A DNA stretch of 64,000 nt, from NCBI GenBank assembly GCA_050950825.1, contig JBMNIH010000001.1, forward strand, positions 32,001-96,000, read 5' to 3'. This DNA is from Clostridia bacterium (lineage in GTDB: Bacteria; Bacillota; Clostridia; JAAYHZ01). Both the position numbers and the translations under genes were made by a program. Positions 7,844 to 40,987 of the stretch are shown in pieces (within the stretch, counting starts at the first letter, position 1; each line of letters begins with the position of its first letter). A model generated the notes under the pieces. The model saw only the letters and a list, made by a program, of their open reading frames with translations. It was not told the origin of the DNA and did no database searches.

Positions 7844-7863
7844 CTGTCGGATCATACCGTATT

Positions 7864-8253
7864 TTACTCTTCAACCGTTTCCGTTGCGGTTGTAACGTTC
7901 GCCGTGTCATAAACCATTCTTTCGGCAACCTTTGAAGCTTTACCGACACGGTCTCTTAAATAATACAGCTTCGCTCTGCGAACCTTACCTTTACGAACGA
8001 CTTCGATTTTGCTGATTTTCGGCGAATTGATCGGGAATGTCTTTTCTACGCCTACACCGTAAGACATTCTACGAACTTTGAAGGTTTCGGTTAAACCTTG
8101 CCCTTTTCTGGCAATAACGGTTCCGTCGAAAACCTGAATTCTTTCTCTGTTACCTTCTTTGATTGTTAAGTAAACCTTAACGAAATCACCGATATCCATT
8201 TGCGGTAAGTCCGTTCTGATTTGATCCTGTTCAACTAATTTAATTAAGTCCAA
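7864..8253 (-). CDS. rplS: 50S ribosomal protein L19
   Basis: [30 protein letters not shown]; TTG start after GGAGG. Confidence 0.98.
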
Positions 8254-8272
8254 TGTTCCTTCCTCCTATATT

Positions 8273-8316
8273 GGCACGTTCATATATTCTGCGCACGCAA
8301 ATACAGCGGAACGCCC
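8273..8316 (-). ncRNA. L19 leader (ribosomal protein autoregulatory RNA)
   Basis: Minus strand GGGCGTTCCGCTGTATT...AATATATGAACGTGCC between promoter and RBS of rplS; matches the GUUCCGCUG...AUGAAC pattern as recalled. Confidence 0.7.
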
Positions 8317-8328
8317 ATAATGAATTGT

Positions 8329-8357
8329 ATTATAGCATATGTTTTTTCGTATGTAAA
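8329..8357 (-). promoter_or_regulatory. SigA promoter of the rplS operon
   Basis: TTTACA-17 nt-TATAAT with extended TG. Confidence 0.75.
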
Positions 8358-8908
8358 CCGGATTTTTTGCTCTTTTGCTTAAACAATCGATGTTTTCCAA
8401 AGAGTTCATCCGTTTTCTTTCATATTTTACTTCCTATTAACATTTATTCTGTAAACATTATGATACAATAAAAGTAACGAATGTTCCTTTGCCCTATCTA
8501 TTTTAGGATGCCGATTGCTCGCTGTCAAGGAAGCGAAGGAATTTTTCTAGAAAAACGTAACCAATCGGAGAAATCTTTCGAGAACGAAAAATCCAAAGCG
8601 TGTGGTAACAGATACGGAAATCCCGCTTAATTTCAGAAAGTTCCGACGTAATCATGACAGGAGTATAGAAAATTTGGATTTACGGCAGGGAAAATATGTA
8701 TATAAAAATATATGGAACGCGTTTAGGTGAGAATAAGTATGATATTCGGAGATCCGATGTATAGAAAAGTGTGTAAGGTTGAATTTACTTGATCAATCAT
8801 GTATCATTTTACTTCGTACGCAACAACCAAAAATGAATGTTCATATAAAGAGATAATTTTAGAAATACATAAAACGGTTGTTAATTCAATTTTTGTGTGG
8901 AGGAGTGT

Positions 8909-10579
8909 ATGTCATCTATGATGGAGACTTTGCTGGGATTTGCCGGTGGGTTGGCTTTGTTCATCTATGGAATGAATCAGATGGGCGACGGTTTAAAAAA
9001 GGTTGCCGGCGAAAAAATGAGAAAGATTCTGGAGGTTCTTACAACAAATCCTCTGATGGGTGTTTTTGTAGGGACGGTGGCAACCGCCATCATGCAAAGC
9101 AGTAGTGCTACAACGGTAATGGTGGTAGGCTTTGTCAGCGCACAGCTGATGACCTTGCCGCAAGCCATCAGCGTCATTATCGGTGCCAATATCGGTACGA
9201 CCGTAACGGCTCAAATTATCGCTTTTAATATCGGCGATTACGCCTATTTATTCGCCGCTGTCGGTTTTTTTCTTTCCTTTGCAAGTAAAAAACGAGTTGT
9301 AAAAAACATCGGGCAAACCGTGTTTTCTTTCGGTGTTCTTTTTATAGGGCTCAATATTATGTCGGCAGCCATGAAGCCTTTGGCTTCGAATCCGTTATTT
9401 ACAAATATACTGGTTAGAATAAAAAACCGGCCGATTTTAGGATTGCTGACCGGTACGGTCGTTACGTTGATTGCCCAAAGCAGTAGTGCCACCATCGGTG
9501 TTCTGCAAGGTTTGGCCTCTACTCCCATGGAAGGCGGTGCCGCTTTAATCTCGCTGCAGCAAGCCATTCCTATTTTATTAGGGTGCAACATCGGTACAAC
9601 CATTACGGCAATCTTTGCTTCCATAGGGGCAACGAAAAATGCAAAAAGAACAGCCGTAGCACACACGGTTTTTAATTTGTCCGGTTCCATCGTCTTTATG
9701 TTTATCATACCTATTTTTGCCGTCATCGTTAAAAAAATATCTCCTTCCGGTATTGAACATATGATTGTATCCAGACAAATCGCCAATGCGCATACATTGT
9801 TTAACATTCTTAACACTGTCATATGGATTCCCCTTCTGGGTTTATTAACAAAAATCGTTCGACTGATCATTCCCGGAGAAGACAAGATGCTTGTTGCAAA
9901 GAGAACCTTGTACTTGGATAAAAACGTTTTAAACAACCCCGCCATTGCCATGGAGCTTGCGGCGAAAGAGCTTGCCCGTATGGCCGAAATCGCTTTGGAT
10001 GCCGTGAAAATATCGAGAGAAGCCTACCTAAACAAAGATGAAAGCTTATCCGAAAAAACATTCGAATTGGAAGAAGCAACGGACTTAATACAAGTGGAGG
10101 TTGTCAACTATTTATCTACAATGCTGTCCATGGGAACTTTAAACCACAAGCAATCGGTACGGTTAGCGGGTCTGATGCACGTGGCCGGCGACATCGAACG
10201 CATCGGCGATTATTGCGAGAATATTGCGGAAGCGGCTATCGTAAGGAAAAATGAAAAAGTCGCCTTTTCGGAAGAGGCCGAAAAAGAAATTAACCAAACC
10301 TTTGATCTATTGACCGAAATGCTAAGCAACACCATCGCCGCCCTAAGAGATGATAATATGGATATGGCCAAGAAGGTAACCGACGAAGAAGAGCAAGTGA
10401 ACAACATTGAAGCCGTATTAAGAGAACGGCATATGGATAGACTGAATCGAGGGCTGTGCGATCCGAATGCCGGTATCTCCTATATTGAACTGGTGCACAA
10501 TCTTGAAAAAATCGGTGACCACTGTACCAATATTGCGGAAGCCATTATTCAATATAACTTGGAAGGCAACCTGGCTTAA
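8909..10579 (+). CDS. Na+/Pi cotransporter family protein with C-terminal PhoU domains
   Basis: Two QSSSAT / G(A/C)NIGTT repeats; PhoU motifs DIERIGD and LEKIGDH; ATG at 8909 after GGAGG. Confidence 0.93.
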   Translation: MSSMMETLLGFAGGLALFIYGMNQMGDGLKKVAGEKMRKILEVLTTNPLMGVFVGTVATAIMQSSSATTVMVVGFVSAQLMTLPQAISVIIGANIGTTVTAQIIAFNIGDYAYLFAAVGFFLSFASKKRVVKNIGQTVFSFGVLFIGLNIMSAAMKPLASNPLFTNILVRIKNRPILGLLTGTVVTLIAQSSSATIGVLQGLASTPMEGGAALISLQQAIPILLGCNIGTTITAIFASIGATKNAKRTAVAHTVFNLSGSIVFMFIIPIFAVIVKKISPSGIEHMIVSRQIANAHTLFNILNTVIWIPLLGLLTKIVRLIIPGEDKMLVAKRTLYLDKNVLNNPAIAMELAAKELARMAEIALDAVKISREAYLNKDESLSEKTFELEEATDLIQVEVVNYLSTMLSMGTLNHKQSVRLAGLMHVAGDIERIGDYCENIAEAAIVRKNEKVAFSEEAEKEINQTFDLLTEMLSNTIAALRDDNMDMAKKVTDEEEQVNNIEAVLRERHMDRLNRGLCDPNAGISYIELVHNLEKIGDHCTNIAEAIIQYNLEGNLA

Positions 10580-23293: not shown

Positions 23294-23369
23294 TGGCTCC
23301 CCAAGTAGGACTCGAACCTACGACCCTGCGGTTAACAGCCGCATGCTCTACCGACTGAGCTATTGAGGA
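23294..23369 (-). tRNA. tRNA-Asn (GTT)
   Basis: TCCTCAATAGCTCAG...CTGTTAA...GTTCGAGTCC...GAGCCA cloverleaf with encoded CCA. Confidence 0.97.
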
Positions 23370-23414
23370 TCGTCCGAACCATGACCGGATTCTACCGATT
23401 CATGGTTCATAATT

Positions 23415-23531
23415 TTCCGGCAGCGACCTATCTTCCCGGGGCGCCACGCCCCGGTATTTTCAGCACCGAGAAGCTTAACTGCCGTGTTCGGGATGGGAAC
23501 GGGTGGGTCCTTCTCGTTATTGCCACCGAAA
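23415..23531 (-). rRNA. rrf: 5S rRNA
   Basis: CCCGTTCCCATCCCGAACACGGCAGTTAAG on the minus strand; ends approximate. Confidence 0.95.
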
Positions 23532-23608
23532 ATCTTTATTCTCTTCGCGCGCTTTTTATCGCACCCTCAAAACTGCATAATACGTCTTTTTTCTTCAGCG
23601 ACGACCTT

Positions 23609-26529
<2,921 letters not shown>

Positions 26530-26787
26530 TTTCCTTTGGTCCATCATTTCATATAGGTTGATTGTCCCAAGCTCGTCGCTTTTCCTGATTATTTTTTTAG
26601 CATTGTTTCAGCATTGTTTTTTTGTCGTTTTCGATAAAATTGCAGACTCAGTGAGTCACTCGTTACCGTTTTTTATTTCGGCTTCTCGTTTTAACTCTCT
26701 TTGTCTTCCTTTTTGTCGCGGTTCCATTCTTCATGGAACCTTTTGACGCATTATGCAGTTTTCAAGGTGCGATCGCTTGCGCGTTCT

Positions 26788-26864
<77 letters not shown>

Positions 26865-26946
26865 TCAAATCCTTGATCATGTACAGTGTATTGAACCGTC
26901 AATCGACCTTATACGATTACGGCGAAATTTCTTCCGTCGTCAATCT

Positions 26947-28490
<1,544 letters not shown>

Positions 28491-28685
28491 TTCAATCTTC
28501 AAACCCTCTTCGGGTCTCTTGTTTGTCCTGTCTTTTTTTTAGACTTTTTGTCCCGTGCGATTTTCTCGCACTTTGGATTTACTTTTAAATGTTAAACTCT
28601 CGCTTTTTCAAGCTTAAGTTTGACGGGTTCAATACACTGTTCATTTTTCAAGGTTCTGCGCCGTCTATTTCCGGACGGCTCGTTT

Positions 28686-31919: not shown

Positions 31920-32696
31920 TCACTCGGATATTTTACTTAAATCGTACTCGATATTAAAAGACGTTAAAAATTCGTTTTCGCTTAATGGAATCGAGGAAGC
32001 AATAAACCGGATATGATCGTTGTAACGCGATGTTACGGAAATCGCTCTCGTTTCGTCGTCGGAAGTTTTTTCGTGATTATCCTTATACACGGTTTCATAA
32101 TGTCCGATAAATTTATCCGTATACTCATTATCCAAAATCCAATATCTTTCAAAGGTTAGGGTATTTTGTTCCGAGTCATATTCCAACCCTCGAACTCCGG
32201 AAAATACGTTCAACCATTCCGGAAAAGGCTTTATAATTCGATCCGGATATTCATTGTCTATATACGGGAAAACAATGGAATTGTACACCGAATAAATTTT
32301 CACCGATAAAGAAACACGGTCGTCTTCATCGAAACGAATGGTGATATGAATTTGCTTATTTTTTACGGAGTATGAGTTTTCCGATACTTTGGGAATGGAC
32401 ATTTCGAATAATTCTTCCGTGTTTTTAATAAAGCTCTCCATACCGCCGCTTTTGTCATAGGTAACATCATAAGTCAATACTTCTTCCTTCGGGTCATAGT
32501 ATTTATGAAGATAGATGATTTTACCCGAAGTCAAATGTGTATCCAAGCCGTATATGTCCTCCAATAAGGCTTCCGTCGGGTGTTCCGTTAAATACGGGTC
32601 CAATGCCGAATAATCCTTCGGTTCTTCTTTTGCTTTACATGCGGATAAAAATATCAATATTAAAATCAAGCTATATGCAAGAAAAGCTTTTCTCAT
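31920..32696 (-). CDS. Hypothetical lipoprotein
   Basis: Signal peptide with lipobox LSAC; GAGG RBS. Confidence 0.7.
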   Translation of the reverse strand: MRKAFLAYSLILILIFLSACKAKEEPKDYSALDPYLTEHPTEALLEDIYGLDTHLTSGKIIYLHKYYDPKEEVLTYDVTYDKSGGMESFIKNTEELFEMSIPKVSENSYSVKNKQIHITIRFDEDDRVSLSVKIYSVYNSIVFPYIDNEYPDRIIKPFPEWLNVFSGVRGLEYDSEQNTLTFERYWILDNEYTDKFIGHYETVYKDNHEKTSDDETRAISVTSRYNDHIRFIASSIPLSENEFLTSFNIEYDLSKISE

Positions 32697-32782
32697 ACTT
32701 AATACTTAACCTCAATCTATGTTCTTTCAATATATTGCACCGTCGAAAAATTTATATGAGTCGTGAATCGATCAAAAACTTT

Positions 32783-33592
32783 TTACTTATCGATTCCGAA
32801 TTTTCTCCGGATGTTTTTCATTACAACATCCTTCGGCAGCAGTCGGGATGCCAAATGCAAAAACCGAGAATTTCTTCCGACGGCATAAAACATCTTCGGT
32901 TTTTTCAATTCCATAATCTTTACAATCTTTTTTGCTATAATATCCGGCGAATCGCCGTTGTTTATGCCGGCATCACGCATATCCGATACTTTTTTGTAGT
33001 AGGGATAATAATCGGATTCTTTGGAACAACTTTTTTCTTGGTATATGTTTGTTTTCACGAACACAGGAGCAACCGCCGTCACAAAAACTCCGAACTGTCG
33101 GGTTTCGCTGTTAAGAGCAAAAGACAGGGTTTCCATAGCCGCCTTGGCCGATGCATAAACGGCCGAAAACGGAACCGGTGTACGGGATGCAAAAGAAGTG
33201 ACATTAATAATCAGCCCCTTTTTTTGCTTTCGCATACCGGGTAACACTCCTTGCATCACAATGCTATGTCCGAAAAGATTAATCTGAAAAAGCTTTTTGA
33301 TTGTATCTTGGGACAATTCCTCCAAAGGTCCCATTAAACTGGAGCCGGCATTGTTGATTAATACATCAACCGTCGGTATTTCCGAAAGCAGCCTTTTGAT
33401 GCTCTCTTCATCGGACAAATCCAACCTTTTGTAAAGAACGCCTTGAACCTTATCTTCTTCCTTTAATCTTTCCGGTTCCCTGCAGGTACCGATAACACGA
33501 TAGCCTTTTTTGACCAATTTTTCGGCAGTCGCTCTTCCGATTCCTTTGGATGCTCCCGTGATCAGCACGGTTTTTTCTTTTTTATCATTCAC
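32783..33592 (-). CDS. SDR oxidoreductase (candidate 3-keto long-chain-base reductase)
   Basis: TGASKGIG, NNAG, YASAK; basic residue after beta-2 (GTCR) suggests NADPH; 2 bp from the VOC gene. Confidence 0.85.
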   Translation of the reverse strand: MNDKKEKTVLITGASKGIGRATAEKLVKKGYRVIGTCREPERLKEEDKVQGVLYKRLDLSDEESIKRLLSEIPTVDVLINNAGSSLMGPLEELSQDTIKKLFQINLFGHSIVMQGVLPGMRKQKKGLIINVTSFASRTPVPFSAVYASAKAAMETLSFALNSETRQFGVFVTAVAPVFVKTNIYQEKSCSKESDYYPYYKKVSDMRDAGINNGDSPDIIAKKIVKIMELKKPKMFYAVGRNSRFLHLASRLLPKDVVMKNIRRKFGIDK

Positions 33593-33594
33593 TT

Positions 33595-34659
33595 TTAGTC
33601 CCGCCCTATATCCAACAGTTTTAATACAAAGTCAGGCAGCGGTTTTTCTCGATCTCTCTTTCTTAAGTCGATAAACCACCCTAATTTCTTGATAACAGGG
33701 ATTTTATGGGTTTCCACAAACTCGATCAACGTCCCGTCGGGATCTTCTATGTAGGAAAAACGGCCGGCTCCTTGTCCCATATCGAAGGATTCTCCTTTTT
33801 GCCCGGCACCGCTGTCCACCGTAAAAGGAAAACCGGCTTTCTCGCATTTTTCTTTTAACGCATTCATATCCAATACATCAAAACACAAATGGATAAAGCC
33901 CAAATCGCCCCATAACCGGTCTTTGAATATTTTCTCTCCTTTTCGTTCTTCGGACCTTATCAACTCGATTTCGCTTTTCCCAAAAAGCCGGGAGAAAGGA
34001 CCGGGTCTTTTATTGCTATGAGTTAAAAGCACACGCCTTAGTATCCATGCTCCTCCGGGGATTTCTTTGTAGTCGTCGAAAGCTTCGGTACGGTCGTAAA
34101 GGATCCGGTCGTATCCGAGCACATCTCGATAAAAGGCAACGGATGCCTCCATGTCGGAAACACCGATTACCGCTCCGAATACGCCTCCGTTTTTGTATTT
34201 GGTTTTCTTAAAGACCTCTTCCGTTTCCACCGCTTGAAAAAGGTTTCCGTAAGGGTCGGAAAAATACAACACGCTCCGACCGTCCGGGGATTTTTTCAAA
34301 TCCCCTAAGACGGCGACATTTTCTTTCTTTAGCCGGTCATACAAGGCTTTCACATCTTTGGATTTGATTTTGGTCATATGGATGCCCAAATCTCCTAAAT
34401 GAAGGTCGAAAGCAGGCGGAGAAGGTGTGCGATCAACATACTGCCAAATTTCCAAGCCTCCCCCTCCCTGCAGATTGTACGCCATAACCGCGTGCCTTTT
34501 TTGAGGCTTTCCGGCGGTGTAAGGCAGCATCAATTCCGCCGTTCCGGCATCGTCGATAACCGGCGTGTTAAATCCTAAATGCTTGTGATACCAATCCAAG
34601 GCCTCGTAAACTTTCTTAACGCCCACTCCCACTTGTTGAATTCCGCTTATTAAATTCAT
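33595..34659 (-). CDS. Two-domain VOC (glyoxalase-fold) protein
   Basis: GIQQVGVGV, DPYGNLFQ, FIHLCFDV, EDPDGTLIEFVE; overlaps the upstream gene by 4 bp. Confidence 0.85.
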   Translation of the reverse strand: MNLISGIQQVGVGVKKVYEALDWYHKHLGFNTPVIDDAGTAELMLPYTAGKPQKRHAVMAYNLQGGGGLEIWQYVDRTPSPPAFDLHLGDLGIHMTKIKSKDVKALYDRLKKENVAVLGDLKKSPDGRSVLYFSDPYGNLFQAVETEEVFKKTKYKNGGVFGAVIGVSDMEASVAFYRDVLGYDRILYDRTEAFDDYKEIPGGAWILRRVLLTHSNKRPGPFSRLFGKSEIELIRSEERKGEKIFKDRLWGDLGFIHLCFDVLDMNALKEKCEKAGFPFTVDSGAGQKGESFDMGQGAGRFSYIEDPDGTLIEFVETHKIPVIKKLGWFIDLRKRDREKPLPDFVLKLLDIGRD

Positions 34660-35924
34660 TCTTCTTCACCGTAAAGTCTTCGAATATCTTTCGGATCAAG
34701 GTTCAGATCCATCTTCATTTCGTCACGTAAGCATTTGAAGGCTTCCAACGTTTTCTCTACGTCTTCGTCCGTATGGTCCGCCGTGGGAATGATGCGAAAT
34801 TCGACAAAATTCTTCGGAATAACGGGATACATTACGGCCGTTGTAAAGATTCCTTTGTTTCTTAAGAACAAAATCCATTCCATACCGATTTTCGGGTCCC
34901 CTCCCGGAACAAATACCGGAATAATCGGCGATTTTACATCACCCACGTAAAAGCCCAAGGCCTTCAATCCTTCGGATAACTTGTCGGAAATATGGAACAG
35001 CTTCTTTCTTCTGTCCGCTCCGTTTCTCACCAGCTCCAACGTCTTCTGTAGACTCTTGACGTAGATCATTGGCAAGCTTTTAGCGAACACCTGCGTTCTG
35101 GAGTTGTACCGAATCCACTCCGTTACGGGCTTATCGGCGGCGGAAAAGCCTCCGATGGATGCAAAAGCCTTGGCAAAGGTTCCGAAGTAGATATCGATTT
35201 TATCTTGAACGCCGAAATATTCGCCGGTACCGACGCCGTTTTTACCCATGACACCTACACCGTGGGCATCGTCCACGAATAATCGAGCTTCGTATTTATC
35301 CTTTAAAGCGCAAATCTCATCCAATTTGGCCAAGTCCCCGGTCATTCCGTAAACACCTTCGGTTAAAACCAGAACGCCGCCTTTTCGTTTTTCATTCACC
35401 TGCTTTAATATTTTTTCAAGGCTGTCCATATCGTTGTGCTTGAATACGCGAAGCTTTCTTCGGTCGGAAACCGCGGAAATAGCTGCGTCCACGATGGAAG
35501 CATGGGCCAGCTTGTCCATAACAATGACATCATCGGGACCTACTAAAGATGCAACGGTACCGATAACACCCAAATAGCCGTAGTTAAACAGGATGGACGA
35601 CTCTTTTTGTGCAAAGTCGGCCAACCCTTCTTCCAAAGCAATGTGCTCCGGTGTGTTGCCGCTCATCATTCTTGAGCCCATAGGGCCGCTTGTGCTCCAG
35701 ATTTCCAATGCTTCTTTTGCCGCTTGCTTCACTTCTTCGTGTCCGGCCAGACCTAAATAATTGTTGATTGACCACATAATATACTGTTTACCTGCAATGG
35801 TCATTTTCGAACCGGGCACCGAATCGATAACAGGCATCGTAAAGGTTCTGTCCCCTGCAGCCCTAAAAGCACCAAAATAACCTGCGTCGGTATTACATTT
35901 TGCAAATATGTCCTCGTATGTCAT
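34656..35924 (-). CDS. PLP alpha-oxoamine synthase, cysteate acyltransferase (SulA/CapB)-like
   Basis: NNYLGL, GSRMMSG, HASIVD, HND, DDAHG, GTFAK252; WSIN, NYGY and QVFAK282SLPM match the cysteate-acyltransferase subfamily as recalled. Confidence 0.8.
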   Translation of the reverse strand: MTYEDIFAKCNTDAGYFGAFRAAGDRTFTMPVIDSVPGSKMTIAGKQYIMWSINNYLGLAGHEEVKQAAKEALEIWSTSGPMGSRMMSGNTPEHIALEEGLADFAQKESSILFNYGYLGVIGTVASLVGPDDVIVMDKLAHASIVDAAISAVSDRRKLRVFKHNDMDSLEKILKQVNEKRKGGVLVLTEGVYGMTGDLAKLDEICALKDKYEARLFVDDAHGVGVMGKNGVGTGEYFGVQDKIDIYFGTFAKAFASIGGFSAADKPVTEWIRYNSRTQVFAKSLPMIYVKSLQKTLELVRNGADRRKKLFHISDKLSEGLKALGFYVGDVKSPIIPVFVPGGDPKIGMEWILFLRNKGIFTTAVMYPVIPKNFVEFRIIPTADHTDEDVEKTLEAFKCLRDEMKMDLNLDPKDIRRLYGEEE

Positions 35925-35961
35925 TTACAGTTCTCCTTATAACTTAAATTTATATTATGAA

Positions 35962-35990
35962 ATACTAGCACATCATCCCGGGCAGTTCAA
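35962..35990 (-). promoter_or_regulatory. SigA-like promoter of the AOS-VOC-SDR operon
   Basis: TTGAAC-17 nt-TAGTAT with extended TG, followed by an AAGGAG RBS. Confidence 0.5.
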
Positions 35991-36002
35991 CCCAAGTGAC
36001 GC

Positions 36003-36779
36003 TTAGTCCTTAAACACATCGCCGATACCGTTTAAAATGTATTTCGGTCGATATGCAAATCTCTTGATATTCTCCGGCGTGGAAACGCCGCTTAAAACCA
36101 ATACCGTATCAATTTCCGATTCGATTCCGGCAATAATATCGGTATCCATACGGTCTCCGATAATGACCGTCTCCGAACTGTCGCAGCCTAAGAGCTTTAA
36201 TCCGTGCCTCATCATTAAGGGATTCGGCTTTCCCACAAAATAGGGTTTTACACCGGTTGCCAATTCAATGGGAGCAATCAGCGCTCGGGTTGCAGGGACA
36301 ATTCCTTTTTCCGTAGGACCGGTAAGGTCCGAATTGGTCCCTATAAGCTTGGCTCCTTTTAGAACCAAATGAACCGCATGCTCGATTACGTGGTAATTGT
36401 AGTTTCGCGTCTCTCCTACCACCACATAATCCGGGTTTACATCGTTCATCGAAAGTCCCGCATCGTACAATGCATTAATCAGCCCCGCCTCCCCGATAAC
36501 AAACACCGATCCCCCGGGCTTTTGGGATTGCAAAAAAGCGGCCGTTGCCAAGGCGCTGGTATAAAAATATTGATCCTCTACTTCGATTCCCATTCGCGCA
36601 AGCTTTTGCGACAGCTCCCTTCGGGAGCGTTCCGAGCTGTTGGTTAAAAACAAAAACCTTTTATTATACTTTCTTAATGCGTCAACAAACTCTTTCGCCC
36701 CCTCCAGCAATCGATTCCCGTGGTAAAGGACGCCGTCCATATCGATGATAAAACCGGTTTTTTCTCTTAATTCCTTCAT
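36003..36779 (-). CDS. HAD-IIA (NagD-like) phosphatase
   Basis: DMDGV, LTNSS, GKPN, GDRMDTDI. Confidence 0.92.
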   Translation of the reverse strand: MKELREKTGFIIDMDGVLYHGNRLLEGAKEFVDALRKYNKRFLFLTNSSERSRRELSQKLARMGIEVEDQYFYTSALATAAFLQSQKPGGSVFVIGEAGLINALYDAGLSMNDVNPDYVVVGETRNYNYHVIEHAVHLVLKGAKLIGTNSDLTGPTEKGIVPATRALIAPIELATGVKPYFVGKPNPLMMRHGLKLLGCDSSETVIIGDRMDTDIIAGIESEIDTVLVLSGVSTPENIKRFAYRPKYILNGIGDVFKD

Positions 36780-36831
36780 ATTTATAACCTTTCCCGATCA
36801 AGATATAACATCACATTCCCGTTCATACGGT

Positions 36832-37665
36832 TCAGATTCGTTCAACGAACTCATGCATTTTCCCCAAGGCAAACAGCTGTTGGGGAGTTTTCGTATTGTA
36901 GCCAAAGCCGTGAGCGGCACCTTCTACAAGAACCAATTCCGCGGAAACTCCGTGTTTTTTAAAGGCATCCATCATATTATCTACGGCTTTTTTGGTTACC
37001 AGTTTATCTTCCGCAGCATGAATGACCAAGCAAGGAGCTTCTTTCCCTGTAATTCGGTAAACGGGTGATGCAATTTTATAAAGCTCCTCGTTTCCTTCAA
37101 TAGGTTTTCCCATAAAGTTTTGGTTACAGCTTATTTCATAGCCGTATATCGTCAAATCGTTGTAATGCAAATCCAAAACCGGGCAATAAAGAACCGCACC
37201 GTACGGGGTTGTGTCCAAGAAGGTCATCTCTGCGGTATAGCCGAGCATATCTTCTTTCGGTATGGTCAAAAGCATCCCGCACAAATAGGCTCCGGCGGAG
37301 GAACCGGCGACGATAATCTTATCCTTGTCGTATCCGTATTTTGACGCATTTTCCTTGAGATAAGACATGCAAAGGCGAACATCTTCGATTTGAGCGGGAA
37401 AATGCCTTTTGTATCCTTCTTGAAAGCTTCCGGATCCTGCCGTATCTCCGGGAGCCAGCCGGTATTCCATGCTGCAGCTAACAAATCCCCTCTCGCAAAA
37501 CCATCTTGCCAAAGGATGCCAAGCATCTTTTTTACCTGCGTGAAATCCTCCCCCGTGTATGAAAAAGATGCATTTGTCGCTTTTGACTTCATCCGGAATG
37601 AACAAGTCCACTACACGTTCGTCCGTGTAATATTTGCTATAGGGTATGTTTAGCAATTCCCTCAT
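36832..37665 (-). CDS. Alpha/beta-hydrolase (esterase, HSL/BD-FAE-like)
   Basis: HGGGF, GSSAG nucleophile, DKLV, HGF. Confidence 0.88.
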   Translation of the reverse strand: MRELLNIPYSKYYTDERVVDLFIPDEVKSDKCIFFIHGGGFHAGKKDAWHPLARWFCERGFVSCSMEYRLAPGDTAGSGSFQEGYKRHFPAQIEDVRLCMSYLKENASKYGYDKDKIIVAGSSAGAYLCGMLLTIPKEDMLGYTAEMTFLDTTPYGAVLYCPVLDLHYNDLTIYGYEISCNQNFMGKPIEGNEELYKIASPVYRITGKEAPCLVIHAAEDKLVTKKAVDNMMDAFKKHGVSAELVLVEGAAHGFGYNTKTPQQLFALGKMHEFVERI

Positions 37666-37676
37666 GTCGTCCTCCG

Positions 37677-38779
37677 TTATTTTTCCTTAGCCAATACGGG
37701 ATACAAGATCTTTGCCATATTATAAAATCCCAAATCCGTAGGATGGGAACCGTCCACCGTCGTTTCCTCGAAGTCTTCTCCTAAAACCCGGCTGCCGTCA
37801 ATAAAGTACATTTGGTCGTATCCTTCCTTTTTCAGCATCTCAATGGTTTCCACGATGAAATCTCCTATGACGTCTTTCGGGTCTTGGGGCATATTCAAGT
37901 CATCCATAAAATAGTAGAAAGATTTCCGTAAAGCCGATATCACGTATATAGGAACATGGGGCCTTTTATTCTTTAAAATTCTCATAAAACCCGGCAAGGT
38001 ATCTTTATACATTTCCACGGTGCAATTGGCGACATAGTCCAGTATATAACAAGAGGCGTCGATTTCCGCCATGCATTCGGCTACGATGGCATCTCCTTGG
38101 CCGTTTCCGGAAAAGCCCAGATTAATGCATTCCTCTTTCATCATGCGGCTTAAGATATTGGTATAGGCCATACCGGGTCTTGAAGCACATCCCCCTTGGG
38201 TAATGGAGGTGCCGTAAAAGACGTTCTTTTTGCCCGGTTTTAAAAATCGGATTTTCCAATGGCCGCACCCTCGTCGATTCCCACAAGAACATGTTGTACA
38301 CCCATGTACAAAGGGAAATTCAGTACAACGGTTCGCATTTTCTTTTTCGGAAAACTAAACATCTCCGATGCATACGAATCCTTGGAGTGGTCGAATCGAG
38401 TGGTCTTGTAATATCTTACCTCGTTTTGATCTCCGATATATACGTCAAAACCGCATTGCCCTGTTGCCGGCATGTGGTACATATTGGCCCTTGAAGGCAT
38501 CTTGACGGCAATATAAAGGCGATTCGAATCGGTGGTAAAGTGAAGCTGTCCCCCGGCCGTGTTGTTTGCCAACGCATCGACGGGAGGTCGTAACATGTCC
38601 TTCACCCTCAACGGCAATCTTCGATAAATCCTGTCTTCCTCAATCCACGGAAACCCTGCAATGAGTATGTCTTCCGAGTCCGGCGGGTTGATCCAACGAA
38701 TGCCTTCAACGGAAGAAAAATCAAAGGCGATTTCGGCTTTAATTTCATCCGCTTTTAATATGTTCATTTGATTGCTCAT
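37677..38779 (-). pseudogene. SGNH/GDSL esterase with N-terminal domain, split by a 1-nt frameshift
   Basis: N part 38240-38779 ends GKSDF*; the -1 frame continues FLKPGKKNVFYGTSITQGGCASRPG...NLGFSGNG...DGSHPTDLG. Confidence 0.8.
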
Positions 38780-38848: not shown

Positions 38849-40987
38849 TTATTCGTTATACTTTAACGCCGATAAATATCCGGGTATTTCCCCTTCAATG
38901 GTTCTTTTCACTTGACGAATTTTCCAAGATAAATGGTCCGGATCCGTCATGTATTCCATACTCGGCTCCCATCCTAATCGAGAGTCCGCTTCCGACAAAG
39001 GAATGGTGTTTCTTGCATTCTCGATCTCATCGTATCCGATTTTTATCAAAGCTTGGCCGTACTCTTTGATTTTTTGGGGATCCGTCTCCACGAACAACTT
39101 CATTTTAAGCAAAGCCCATTCCTTTACATGGATTGTGGTGGTACAGCAGTTCGCGATAAACTTGCCGAGATTGATCATGTAAAAAGCGTCCTTTTTCTTG
39201 TTTTCCGGCAATGTCGGATAGATTTCTTCCAAAATGGCAACGCCCTCTTGGAAGTAGGACCTCATCTTTTTTATGCGATTCATTTCTACCGGCAATCGGA
39301 ATTGGAACAAAGAGCTTCTTGTATTGTCATGAGAGCCGTAATGCGGGTTGCATATTTTGTTTCCTCCGAACATGGCATAAGGTATGGACGGTATGGTAAC
39401 ACCGGATCGGAACACCAACGGATAGGACGGTCCGATACGGAAAGGACCGTATTGGTCTTCGTTGGTCGAGATGTAGCATCGAATGCCTTCGCTCCACAAC
39501 CGCCATGCTTTCGTTACCTTTTCCACGTTTTGTTTTCCGAAATCTCTTTCCGCAATCAGCTCCAAAACCTTATCTTCCGCGGGTGATTCCGTCCAATAGG
39601 ACCATTTGGCCGCTTCGGAAATAAAAGAAGGCCAAAAGCCGTAATGATGAGATTCCATCAAGCCCGAAAGTCCCCAATTGATACGCGCCTCATGCAATTT
39701 TTCATGACGACGCATCCACTGATAAGGACAAGGCTCGTATGGGATGACACCGATATCCCAAGTCAGTCCTCCGGTGTTGCACATGGTATAAAGGCGTATT
39801 CCCCGTTCCTTTGCAATCTTCGCTTCGCTTGCAAAATACTTGCCCGGTCCTTCGAAGGATAAGGTATAGTCCACACAGGTACTCATGACACCGTCCGTGG
39901 GAATCTTTTCGAACATCTCGAAGGTAACCAATAGGGAGACATCGTTCGGGATATTTTTTAAAAGCTCGATACGGTGCTCTTCGTCCACATAACCCCAGTT
40001 ATATGTCCAAAATACGATATCCGCATCTTCTTTGTGTTTTCGGATGGTTTTTTTGATCAAGTTCAACCATTGGGGATAATCGCTGCAAGGCCACCATCCG
40101 GGACTGGGTTTTCCCGTAGGCAAGCCGTCTTCGGTATTTTCGTAGTAAAACTTCCCGGAGGTGCGGGGGTCTTTACTGGGAAATTCCACCGACTCTCCCA
40201 CCATGACAATGCCTTTTAAGCCCGGGCACTTTTGAAACAGCTTCCCGTATGTATTCCCGTAATAGCTTTCCGCATCCGGATCATCCGGATGCTTTAAGCT
40301 TTTCATATAGCTGTAGGCATACACGTCAATTCCATACCCTTCGGCACGGTAGATCAATTCGTTGAAGTCCACGTATCCGTGAGGAGTAATATCCACATCC
40401 TTGGTAAATACCAAAATGGCATCGATGCCTTGATGGGCAATGGCATTCAAATGAGCATCCGGAAACATATCCAAGCCGTACCCGGAATGGACCATTCGAG
40501 GAGAGAACAGGGGTTTCCTTGCCATATCCTGTTTGGCAACCACGGGAGCGCATTTTAAATTCATCAAATCTTCCAAATAGTAAGCCCCCTGAGCCGCACC
40601 TTTGCAATCAAATCCGCAAATGAGGATGCCCTCATCCGTACATAAAAATCGGTAGCTGCGCTGTGTGTCCAAGTCTTTTCCGTATTCGGGGGATAATCTT
40701 TTATTGGTAAGAATAATCTTTCGAGATAAGGAAGCGATTTCCGTGGCAATGTTATCCGTGATTCTCAGCTTTAAAAATACTTTCATCGATACGGCAAAGT
40801 AGTCCTGAAGGTCATTTGCGGCGATTTTCAATACTCGGGCGGTATCCTCCGGAAGCACGATTTCCCAGGTTTCGTCCACTTGGATTTCGTTCTCGGACGG
40901 AAGTACGTGAAAATCTCTTCGGCCGGGCTTATGAACCTCCAGCATTCTTTTACGAAAATCGTAATTTCTTTCTTTTACAACGTCCAT
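38849..40987 (-). CDS. Uncharacterised glycoside hydrolase-like protein (GH20/GH67-type N-terminal domain)
   Basis: GILICGFD..GAAQGAYYLEDL...PLFSPRMVH N-domain pattern; no signal peptide. Confidence 0.55.
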   Translation of the reverse strand: MDVVKERNYDFRKRMLEVHKPGRRDFHVLPSENEIQVDETWEIVLPEDTARVLKIAANDLQDYFAVSMKVFLKLRITDNIATEIASLSRKIILTNKRLSPEYGKDLDTQRSYRFLCTDEGILICGFDCKGAAQGAYYLEDLMNLKCAPVVAKQDMARKPLFSPRMVHSGYGLDMFPDAHLNAIAHQGIDAILVFTKDVDITPHGYVDFNELIYRAEGYGIDVYAYSYMKSLKHPDDPDAESYYGNTYGKLFQKCPGLKGIVMVGESVEFPSKDPRTSGKFYYENTEDGLPTGKPSPGWWPCSDYPQWLNLIKKTIRKHKEDADIVFWTYNWGYVDEEHRIELLKNIPNDVSLLVTFEMFEKIPTDGVMSTCVDYTLSFEGPGKYFASEAKIAKERGIRLYTMCNTGGLTWDIGVIPYEPCPYQWMRRHEKLHEARINWGLSGLMESHHYGFWPSFISEAAKWSYWTESPAEDKVLELIAERDFGKQNVEKVTKAWRLWSEGIRCYISTNEDQYGPFRIGPSYPLVFRSGVTIPSIPYAMFGGNKICNPHYGSHDNTRSSLFQFRLPVEMNRIKKMRSYFQEGVAILEEIYPTLPENKKKDAFYMINLGKFIANCCTTTIHVKEWALLKMKLFVETDPQKIKEYGQALIKIGYDEIENARNTIPLSEADSRLGWEPSMEYMTDPDHLSWKIRQVKRTIEGEIPGYLSALKYNE

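Follow-up and report, generated by a model that had tools for sequence, protein, structure and literature searches.

In a 64,000-nucleotide stretch of a Clostridia bacterium genome (assembly GCA_050950825.1, contig JBMNIH010000001.1, positions 32,001 to 96,000; the whole stretch is called the window and numbered from its first letter), three coupled genes on the minus strand encode an alpha-oxoamine synthase (AOS), a two-domain protein of the glyoxalase fold (VOC) and a short-chain dehydrogenase/reductase (SDR). The three genes are probably the central part of a pathway for capnine-type sulfonolipids, harboured by a monoderm Clostridium from anaerobic digesters, so that sulfonolipid production probably extends far beyond the group known for it. 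The case is computational.

34656-35924, minus strand: AOS, 422 aa, ATG start; putative cysteate acyltransferase (SulA/CapB/CFAT-like) of the 'type 2' clade
33595-34659, minus strand: VOC, glyoxalase-fold, two-domain protein, 354 aa, ATG start, with a basic C-terminal tail; conserved CFAT partner
32783-33592, minus strand: classical SDR, 269 aa, GTG start; candidate 3-ketocapnine reductase

The three open reading frames (ORFs) are intact and translationally coupled. The AOS and VOC genes overlap by 4 bp (ATGA) and a 2-bp gap separates VOC from SDR (TAA-AA-GTG), so that the tight coupling reported in a preliminary description of this DNA was confirmed. The AOS motifs quoted there were also located, with WSINNYLGL at residues 51-59, PMGSRMMSG at 81-89, NYGYLG at 114-119, GTFAK at 248-252 (K252) and RTQVFAKSLPM at 276-286 (K282).

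The AOS is a fold-type I alpha-oxoamine synthase (PF00155, 1e-46, Pfam). When all PDB sequences were searched with phmmer, the best matches were the cysteate acyltransferases SulA of Alistipes (7u7h, 362 bits) and CFAT of Capnocytophaga (28eh, 356 bits); serine palmitoyltransferase (SPT) scored 233 bits, Kbl 223, ALAS 168 and BioF 162. The HMMER alignments with 7u7h and 28eh run end to end. K252 falls in the column of the pyridoxal phosphate (PLP) lysine (FAK; Lys250 and Lys251 in the publications) of SulA and of the Capnocytophaga ochracea enzyme (COCFAT), and K282 falls at their second, trans-subunit lysine (K281 of SulA, K280 of COCFAT). The SPT 3A2B has FSASM in the segment that holds the second lysine of the AOS, an F-S-A-S that is in keeping with the F-S/T-A/T/N-S pattern given in the preliminary description. 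Among the NCBIfam models for BioF, Kbl, SPT, ALAS and CqsA, no cut-off was reached. BioF and Kbl were the top rows by score, at 312 bits for bioF TIGR00858 (cut-off 426) and 309 and 262 bits for the Kbl models NF005394 (460) and TIGR01822 (493), which places the AOS outside both families. The SPT models gave 295 bits for NF047600 (cut-off 640), 293 for NF047599 (500) and 218 for NF047603 (670), and the AOS is likewise no member of these.

The relatives of the AOS were collected in two ways. A word-based protein search returned 8000 candidates, the best 120 of them 60-100% identical; the named organisms among these 120 were Sporobacter termitidis, Haloplasma contractile, Anaerofustis, Paenibacillus, Bacillus salacetis, Treponema and Aminicenantes. 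Additionally, species-representative genomes were scanned with the patterns [IV]LFN[YF]GYLG and DAHG[FV]GVM, which favour the AOS type of the window itself, and the 80 related loci referred to below are the best 80 of at least 575 relatives among at least 600 pattern matches. For the phylogeny, 30 Bacteroidota homologues (the best of the 75 genomes with a match among 201 sampled), 11 loci from the class Clostridia and the second AOS of the genome were added. The resulting tree had 123 rows, all of which were kept (IQ-TREE quick search, LG+G4, SH-aLRT support only), and was rooted on 10 rows of SPT-like or other AOS enzymes.

The 113 CFAT-like rows all came together in a single clade (SH-aLRT 100), within which 29 rows make up a classical Bacteroidota clade (SH-aLRT 100) and the other 84 a second one (91), designated type 2, in which the window AOS lies. 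The type 2 clade comprises 44 Spirochaetota and 15 Bacillota, together with Aminicenantes, a few Chitinophagales and Cytophagia, Rhodothermota and others. Sequences chosen to represent each of the two subclades of the classical clade scored 605/601 and 476/455 bits against 28eh/7u7h, and therefore the assayed and solved enzymes belong with the classical clade. The window AOS pairs with the AOS of a genome of the same family (G004, 84% identity, support 99), followed by those of Ruminiclostridium, Sporobacter, Anaerofustis and some Treponema metagenome-assembled genomes (MAGs), and is 42-48% identical to the classical Bacteroidota homologues. The test by phylogeny that had been proposed came out in favour: sequence scores and tree alike place the AOS with SulA/CapB, away from SPT, Kbl and BioF. 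The preliminary description further held that a monoderm Firmicute had acquired a capnine-type pathway. The pathway and the monoderm host are supported; a recent import from classical Bacteroidota is not, since the AOS is an enzyme of the sister clade.

Residues were compared over the 84 type 2 rows, the 29 classical rows and the 10 SPT-like outgroup rows, using our own alignment and the printed HMMER alignment. Six positions split both CFAT clades from the outgroup, and the window AOS is CFAT-like at all of them (Y117, E189, F247, A251, A281 and K282). K282 is present in 84/84 type 2 and 29/29 classical rows, while the outgroup has Ala in seven rows and Thr in three. The AOS also keeps the PLP lysine, the second lysine, Asn54, His141, Glu189, Asp218, His221, Thr249 and Arg377 of the solved CFATs. 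Thus the claimed kinship with the SulA/CapB cysteate acyltransferases, second lysine included, is supported by the PDB scores, the tree and the six CFAT residues. The role ascribed to that lysine, binding of the cysteate sulfonate, finds no backing in the papers. According to the available sections of Radka et al. (PMC9304779), SulA K281A still binds cysteate and is about 1000-fold less active; its authors gave the residue a structural role and suggested that it could serve as a marker. A structure of the Capnocytophaga enzyme as the cysteate aldimine, along with a list of the pocket residues, comes from Pang et al. 2026 (PMC13692747); there the sulfonate is hydrogen-bonded by Asn52, His139 and Lys250 of COCFAT, and the backbone of Lys280' binds the PLP phosphate. 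On these comparisons it is very likely that the AOS uses cysteate.

The preliminary description had cautioned that no cysteate synthase was visible in the window and had called for a genome search. This search settled the matter, as the 97% complete genome has one TIGR03844 match, at 420.3 bits against a cut-off of 324.9, on another contig:

C8:128559-129878, outside the window: cysteate synthase (TIGR03844)

Threonine synthase models gave at most 60 bits for this protein, and the TIGR03844 cut-off was passed in only 1 of 14 control genomes. A cysteate synthase homologue occurs within 7 kb of the AOS in 45 of the 80 related loci, and in 40/80 it lies directly upstream on the same strand; both counts are floors because several loci end at contig ends. 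In a sample of the class, 94 of 400 scored genomes had some AOS at E of at most 1e-60, while the CFAT type (at least 70% identity) was confined to three (G000, G004 and Anaerofustis G286), the next-best AOS being 41% identical. TIGR03844 was above cut-off in 3/399 genomes, the same three that have a full-length type 2 AOS; the kin in this sample are not independent, and the match is complete apart from the fragmentary G046. In G046, which is of the same genus, a contig starts inside the AOS, of which the last 104 aa are present (86.5% identical), and goes on to VOC, SDR and a lipoprotein gene.

Cysteate synthase, AOS, SDR and VOC occur all together in four loci, all from Bacillota (L003, L004, L006 and L015), and in two of these (L006 and L015) an AprA-like flavoprotein gene follows SDR. 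An orthologue of this gene (61-84% identical in pieces) follows the cysteate synthase in the genome of the window. Judged by gene order, AOS-VOC-SDR on contig C1 and cysteate synthase-AprA on contig C8 look like two halves of a cluster that is contiguous in relatives. The Spirochaetota loci carry CysD, CysN/C and CysH instead of the AprA-like gene, and CysD, CysN and CysC are also found on contig C4 of the present genome. The AprA-like and the CysD/CysN/CysC/CysH sets supply sulfite. In Sporobacter and other Bacillota (L003:3864-5433 and L004:4285-5656) a CobW-like GTPase gene and a gene for a PF04060 'FeS' protein precede the cysteate synthase, and in Anaerofustis (L007:4907-5614) the FeS protein gene alone was seen upstream of it. 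These two proteins might constitute an alternative sulfite-supply or maturation system. Three loci of aerobic Bacillaceae (L011-L013, from Fictibacillus and Bacillus salacetis) have a type 2 AOS alone, with no cysteate synthase, VOC or SDR within 7 kb.

The third protein of the operon is a classical SDR (PF00106, 3e-47, Pfam) with intact motifs, TGASKGIG at residue 12, NNAG at 80 and YASAK at 146. Orthologues of at least 35% identity are present in 21 of the 80 related loci and lie directly 3' of the AOS in 17; paralogues in the same genome are at most 32% identical. The orthologous SDR follows the AOS in many phyla, which supports the suggestion that it is the partner of the condensing enzyme.

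The VOC protein has two glyoxalase-type domains (PF00903, 9e-25; PF13669, 8e-12; Pfam). The possibility was considered that it is glyoxalase I, methylmalonyl-CoA epimerase or a Fos protein. These assignments were rejected because the scores lie below every curated cut-off, 33 bits for TIGR00068 (glyoxalase I, cut-off 120), 26 for TIGR03081 (methylmalonyl-CoA epimerase, 115) and at most 34 for Fos (at least 171), and the general VOC fold alone was established. A PDB sequence search yielded matches of only 24 and 19 bits and no close solved relative. The predicted structure (pLDDT 92.5) retrieved generic two-domain VOC proteins with Foldseek, at TM-scores of about 0.5-0.57 and none above 0.57. 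The modelled protein would share the paired beta-alpha-beta-beta-beta architecture of Bacillus cereus 1ZSW, PcpA (4HUZ), human GLOD4 (9CSJ) and maize glyoxalase I (6BNN); it differs from these in being only 13-15% identical, in its own invariant set (R55, R209, R248, D252, C259 and D261) and in its basic C-terminal tail. An Atlas search gave unnamed VOC clusters, commonest in Bacteroidota.

The distribution of the VOC protein follows that of CFAT. In 32 of the 80 related loci a homologue is encoded no more than 7 kb from the AOS, and in the class sample the protein is limited to G000, G046 and G004 (3/399). Among the 201 Bacteroidota genomes, 75 of which have a CFAT, all 41 VOC-positive genomes are CFAT-positive and the 126 CFAT-negative genomes have no VOC. 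Identity to the Bacteroidota matches is mostly 46-56% (38-56% overall), so VOC is better conserved than the AOS (42-48%). Of the two CFAT subclades, the one more distant from the solved enzymes has it more often (6/8 sampled) than the nearer one (3/21), which may be why it has been overlooked. In ten Bacteroidota loci (L142-L151, probably close kin) a gene of about 200 codons for a thioredoxin-fold protein (AhpC-TSA/Redoxin) stands directly before VOC on the same strand, 10/10; four of these genes are annotated as such and the rest were assigned from size and position. In literature searches, which left most subscription journals outside, no paper linking a VOC protein to sulfonolipids was found, and the two papers containing both 'sulfonolipid' and 'glyoxalase' were unrelated.

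Across 39 VOC sequences, ten of them from Bacteroidota, Q8, E70, R55, R209, R248, C259, D261, E313 and an EDPDG loop are invariant or nearly so, and H257 is common, not invariant. Gln8/Glu70 together with His257/Glu313 resemble the Gln/Glu/His/Glu zinc site of human glyoxalase I. The C-terminus is basic, and its tail may be amphipathic and suited to a membrane surface. From these features we infer a metal-dependent proton-transfer enzyme that acts at the membrane surface on an anionic substrate. There is a good chance that VOC is a genuine enzyme of the pathway. Reconstitutions with CFAT and a 3-ketocapnine reductase (KCR) alone gave two putative epimers, as described in the accessible part of PMC11211663; control of the stereochemistry at C2 by VOC is therefore one testable idea.

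Gene integrity, family placement, conserved residues, synteny and co-occurrence are direct observations, from which we infer the substrates, chain length, products and all catalytic roles. In the proposed pathway, the cysteate synthase on contig C8 would convert O-phosphoserine and sulfite to L-cysteate. From cysteate and a fatty acyl thioester the PLP-dependent AOS would form a 3-keto-capnine-type base in a condensation that releases CO2, and the coupled SDR would reduce the 3-keto group to give a capnine-type 2-amino-3-hydroxy-alkane-1-sulfonate. VOC would be a conserved accessory enzyme of the same pathway; the best guess, of low confidence, is metal-assisted proton transfer (as an epimerase or isomerase) on the labile alpha-amino-ketone or its N-acyl form. 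It is rather likely that the operon yields a capnine-type long-chain base, and the chances that an N-acylated sulfonolipid accumulates in the membrane appear evenly balanced. A wider proposal is put forward tentatively, as something possible that falls short of probable: VOC would be an unrecognised sulfonolipid enzyme common to Bacteroidota, Bacillota, Spirochaetota, Rhodothermota and others, possibly a metal-dependent epimerase or isomerase that sets C2 of 3-ketocapnine, and capnine-type sulfonolipids made via type 2 CFAT would be membrane lipids of monoderm Clostridia and many Spirochaetota.

N-acylation would need a further enzyme, one candidate being a 373-aa GNAT protein encoded on contig C7. 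At C7:129366-134247 (locus L090:5366-10247) this gene lies between two same-strand ORFs of 422 and 427 aa that have weak matches to the N-terminal Ceramidase_alk domain, one directly after the GNAT gene and the other about 1.2 kb upstream. Compared over the full length, it shares 39% identity with a GNAT that follows AOS-SDR in five of the related loci (L017, L018, L021, L032 and L058). The GNAT and the ceramidase-like ORFs are a candidate N-acyltransferase/deacylase set for long-chain bases. When five genomes were tested for GNAT orthologues, they were found only in the two of the same family and not in Anaerofustis G286, Sporobacter G403 or Fictibacillus G404; the GNAT is therefore a candidate and not a conserved partner.

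A second long-chain-base cluster is present in the genome on the minus strand of contig C10 (C10:156380-158385; locus L089:5112-8385), with genes for a KdsR-like SDR (280 bits with NF049977, cut-off 400), an SPT-like AOS (565 bits with NF047600, cut-off 640; 36% identical to the window AOS) and a GT4 glycosyltransferase. Its gene content suggests a glycosyl-sphingolipid-like pathway in the same Clostridium. AOS genes like this one (32-41% identical) occur in many genomes of the class.

Several observations weigh against the proposed sulfonolipid pathway. The classical substrate pocket is not conserved in the AOS, which has S84 for Ala82', L118 for Gln116 and S143 for Cys141 (COCFAT numbering). 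The classical rows are A, Q and C at these sites in 29/29, whereas the type 2 rows have Ser in 69/84, Leu in 79/84 and Ser in 73/84, and two of the three differing residues, S84 and S143, are in the SPT-like state. The specificity or chain length of the AOS could therefore differ. Within the alignment the S84/L118/S143 pattern marks a distinct CFAT subclade. COCFAT C141A retains 19-48% of its activity, and mutagenesis, as far as reported in the sections of PMC13692747 at hand, could not define the determinants of cysteate specificity; residues alone thus prove little. The best 120 relatives of each of two queries, the window AOS and the L017 AOS, mostly nameless rows, included no type 2 member recognisable as characterised, and no biochemical or lipid evidence was found for members of the clade. 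No N-acyltransferase is linked to the operon. The SDR scored 161 bits with the KdsR model NF049977 (cut-off 400) and is not a member of that family. Validated KCRs are themselves diverse, with 21-27% similarity to Tsc10p (from the available text of PMC11211663), and the low KdsR score is therefore no argument against a 3-ketocapnine reductase function.

Sulfite supply and cysteate synthesis add further doubts. The AprA-like gene, encoding a homologue of adenosine 5'-phosphosulfate (APS) reductase (C8:126851-128550; locus L002, about 7850-9560), overlaps the cysteate synthase gene by 4 bp and is broken into at least five frame pieces, which puts the sulfite supply of this strain in doubt; in L006 and L015 its orthologue encodes an unbroken protein of 566-587 aa. 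The frame pieces may reflect a real pseudogene or an assembly error. Moreover, TIGR03844 had no match at 1e-30 in two AOS-bearing genomes, Fictibacillus G404 and the Cytophagia MAG G401, in a search that left CapA-type synthases outside its scope.

The possibility was considered that the AOS joins cysteate to a short or medium acyl-CoA, so that the product is a soluble amino-hydroxy-sulfonate (an osmolyte, signal or antibiotic precursor) and not a membrane lipid, with VOC tailoring it later. The altered pocket positions 84, 118 and 143 of the type 2 clade would fit this, as would the operon's lack of an acyl carrier protein (ACP), an acyl-ACP synthetase and an N-acyltransferase, and a VOC enzyme is unusual in lipid pathways. 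However, the AOS aligns end to end with long-chain enzymes and keeps 42-48% identity to the classical clade, and in Cytophagia, Aminicenantes and other MAGs the type 2 AOS is followed by SDR and a 373-aa GNAT, like a ceramide-synthesis set. VOC tracks CFAT in Bacteroidota, the phylum of the described sulfonolipids, and its basic tail would, by inference only, fit a membrane surface. A soluble product is accordingly regarded as unlikely.

An AOS acting on serine, phosphoserine, homocysteate or aspartate, to give a sphingoid or other anionic long-chain base, appears improbable. Such an enzyme would agree with the SPT-like S84 and S143, with the two AOS-bearing genomes that lack a TIGR03844 match, and with the SPT-like AOS elsewhere in the genome, which brings in long-chain-base chemistry in any case; cysteate synthase would then be linked to the AOS through some other use of cysteate or sulfite. 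Yet this synthase is directly upstream in half of the related loci and shows complete co-occurrence with the AOS in the class sample, the AOS has the CFAT residue at each of the six positions that tell CFAT from SPT, and the best SPT model gave 295 bits against cut-offs of 500-670. Genomes that lack TIGR03844 may use the CapA-type synthase mentioned in the accessible portion of PMC10191378. Least credible is an ordinary Kbl/BioF enzyme with a threonine-dehydrogenase-like SDR and a glyoxalase, serving methylglyoxal detoxification (threonine to aminoacetone to methylglyoxal) or biotin synthesis. The combination of AOS, dehydrogenase and glyoxalase fold suits it superficially, relatives are publicly annotated 'glycine C-acetyltransferase', and BioF and Kbl lead the NCBIfam rows. 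Their scores are nevertheless far under the cut-offs (312 vs 426 and 309 vs 460), PDB Kbl and BioF gave 223 and 162 bits against 362 for SulA, VOC falls well below the glyoxalase I threshold, and the cysteate synthase linkage is left unexplained. The Kbl/Tdh/glyoxalase reading was rejected, being contradicted by the model scores, the PDB scores, this linkage and the tree.

The host of the putative sulfonolipid operon had been presumed to be monoderm. In the 97% complete genome, BamA and LpxC had no match, and a monoderm Clostridium is therefore a reasonable reading. Its methionyl-tRNA synthetase is closest to those of 'Clostridiales bacterium' (84%), Acetivibrio (74%), Pseudoclostridium thermosuccinogenes and Ruminiclostridium hungatei. 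These results, with the synthetase nearest to Clostridia of the Acetivibrio/Ruminiclostridium type, support the presumption. Two full-length Spo0A-like matches fell just under the cut-off.

A 3.3-kb stretch covering the operon was found nearly whole (sampled-word share of at least 0.97) in 14 DNA runs from sludge, bioreactor, anaerobic-digester and unspecified metagenomes, and six metatranscriptome runs hold 56-93% of it. Contigs from three biogas-fermenter RNA runs span SDR, VOC and AOS (33024-36175, 32966-35916 and 33731-36377) with at least 99% likeness. These contigs hint at expression of the operon; they are no proof of a single transcript, since such libraries may contain DNA, and this too counts on the other side.

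The AOS shares with SulA (Alistipes finegoldii, PDB 7U7H) and CapB/CFAT (Capnocytophaga ochracea, PDB 28EH) the fold-type I AOS architecture, the catalytic residues and the six CFAT residues. It differs from them in its sister-clade position, in Ser84/Leu118/Ser143 for Ala/Gln/Cys, in its monoderm host and in its coupling to VOC and SDR. The same three enzyme types that make up the capnine/sulfobacin pathway of Chryseobacterium gleum and A. finegoldii, as outlined in the available part of PMC11211663, are found here in one genome. The cysteate synthase of this genome belongs to the archaeal type, which the portion of PMC10191378 consulted also gives for Alistipes and Odoribacter. In the characterised Bacteroidota several redundant, scattered reductases, unlinked to cfat or the cysteate synthase gene, are described (PMC11211663, same portion), whereas here a single SDR is coupled to the AOS. 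The closest relatives of the window differ further from the Bacteroidota capnine pathway in having one operon that includes VOC and the AprA-like sulfite-generating gene. Bacterial SPT and 3-ketodihydrosphingosine reductase (NF047600 and NF049977) carry out the same chemistry, a PLP-dependent decarboxylative Claisen condensation followed by SDR reduction. The window AOS is set apart from SPT by its 295 bits against the cut-off of 640 and by Lys in place of Ala/Thr at 282, and the genome has the separate SPT-type pair on contig C10.

Sulfonolipids are treated as outer-membrane lipids of Bacteroidota in the accessible sections of PMC9304779, and roles in host immunity have been described (PMC11525784, in part). 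Of 9633 prioritised gut genomes with cysteate synthase, CFAT and SDR, one species was from Firmicutes_A, according to the available text of PMC11525784, and that of PMC11211663 includes Firmicutes genomes in a count of KCR-like genes made with loose cut-offs. In the same literature searches, most subscription journals again lying outside, no report was found of a sulfonolipid in Bacillota or Spirochaetota or of an assay of a type 2 enzyme. The chemistry is that of the published capnine pathway; what is new is a distinct CFAT clade, a new type of host envelope, an additional conserved enzyme and an operon organisation that extends to sulfite supply. Should sulfonolipids indeed be produced by a monoderm Clostridium and by many Spirochaetota, they would span far more taxa and envelope types than has been assumed and would no longer be a clean marker of Bacteroidota; where sulfonate lipids are detected in anaerobic digesters, sediments or guts, other organisms could be their source. 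Because the uncharacterised VOC co-occurs strictly with CFAT, it is a concrete candidate for a missing pathway step, testable in genetically tractable Flavobacteriia. Cultured carriers of a type 2 AOS exist, namely Sporobacter termitidis DSM 10068 (AOS 71% identical), Haloplasma contractile, Bacillus salacetis and Fictibacillus spp., among them Fictibacillus phosphorivorans; in a Sporobacter MAG the genes stand in the order cysteate synthase-AOS-SDR-VOC as an operon.

The surroundings of the operon are as follows.

35925-36002, minus strand: gap 5' of AOS, 78 bp, with an AGGAG ribosome site at 35937-35933 and a possible TTGAAC-17-TAGTAT promoter at 35990-35962
36003-36779, minus strand (the strand of AOS): HAD-IIA phosphatase, upstream neighbour
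31920-32696, minus strand: lipoprotein, 258 aa, with signal and lipobox LSAC, 86 bp 3' of SDR

The promoter that had been claimed upstream of the operon did not stand up to a consensus scan, which was at chance level (8 sites in 32500-36900 vs 7.9 expected) and gave no site within the 78-bp gap. Read by eye, the gap contains TTGAAC at 35990-35985, a 17-nt spacer and TAGTAT at 35967-35962 with a preceding TG, as well as the AGGAG. On its sequence this is a plausible promoter, no better than chance; read-through transcription into AOS is equally possible because the HAD gene upstream is on the same strand and 78 bp away. The HAD-IIA gene is syntenic only within the family (G004) and occurs in 0/80 related loci, so it is probably outside the pathway. 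The lipoprotein gene is kept after SDR in G046 and is present in 0/80 other loci. No riboswitch or other RNA was found near the operon within the 64-kb window, and none in the four loci of the genome that carry the cysteate synthase, cysDN, the SPT-like cluster and the GNAT.

Upstream of the HAD gene, a 712-aa ORF (38849-40987, minus strand), which has no Pfam match at E of at most 0.001, adjoins esterase and alpha/beta-hydrolase genes. An ORF with a GxDLY domain (38240-38779) and one with a Lipase_GDSL_3 match that begins at profile position 22 of 178 (37677-38171, minus strand) look like the halves of one frame-broken SGNH esterase. A complete rRNA operon (16S, tRNA, 23S, 5S, tRNA) occupies 23297-28493 on the minus strand, 4 kb from the AOS operon, and accounts for the high-GC stretch at 24-28 kb.

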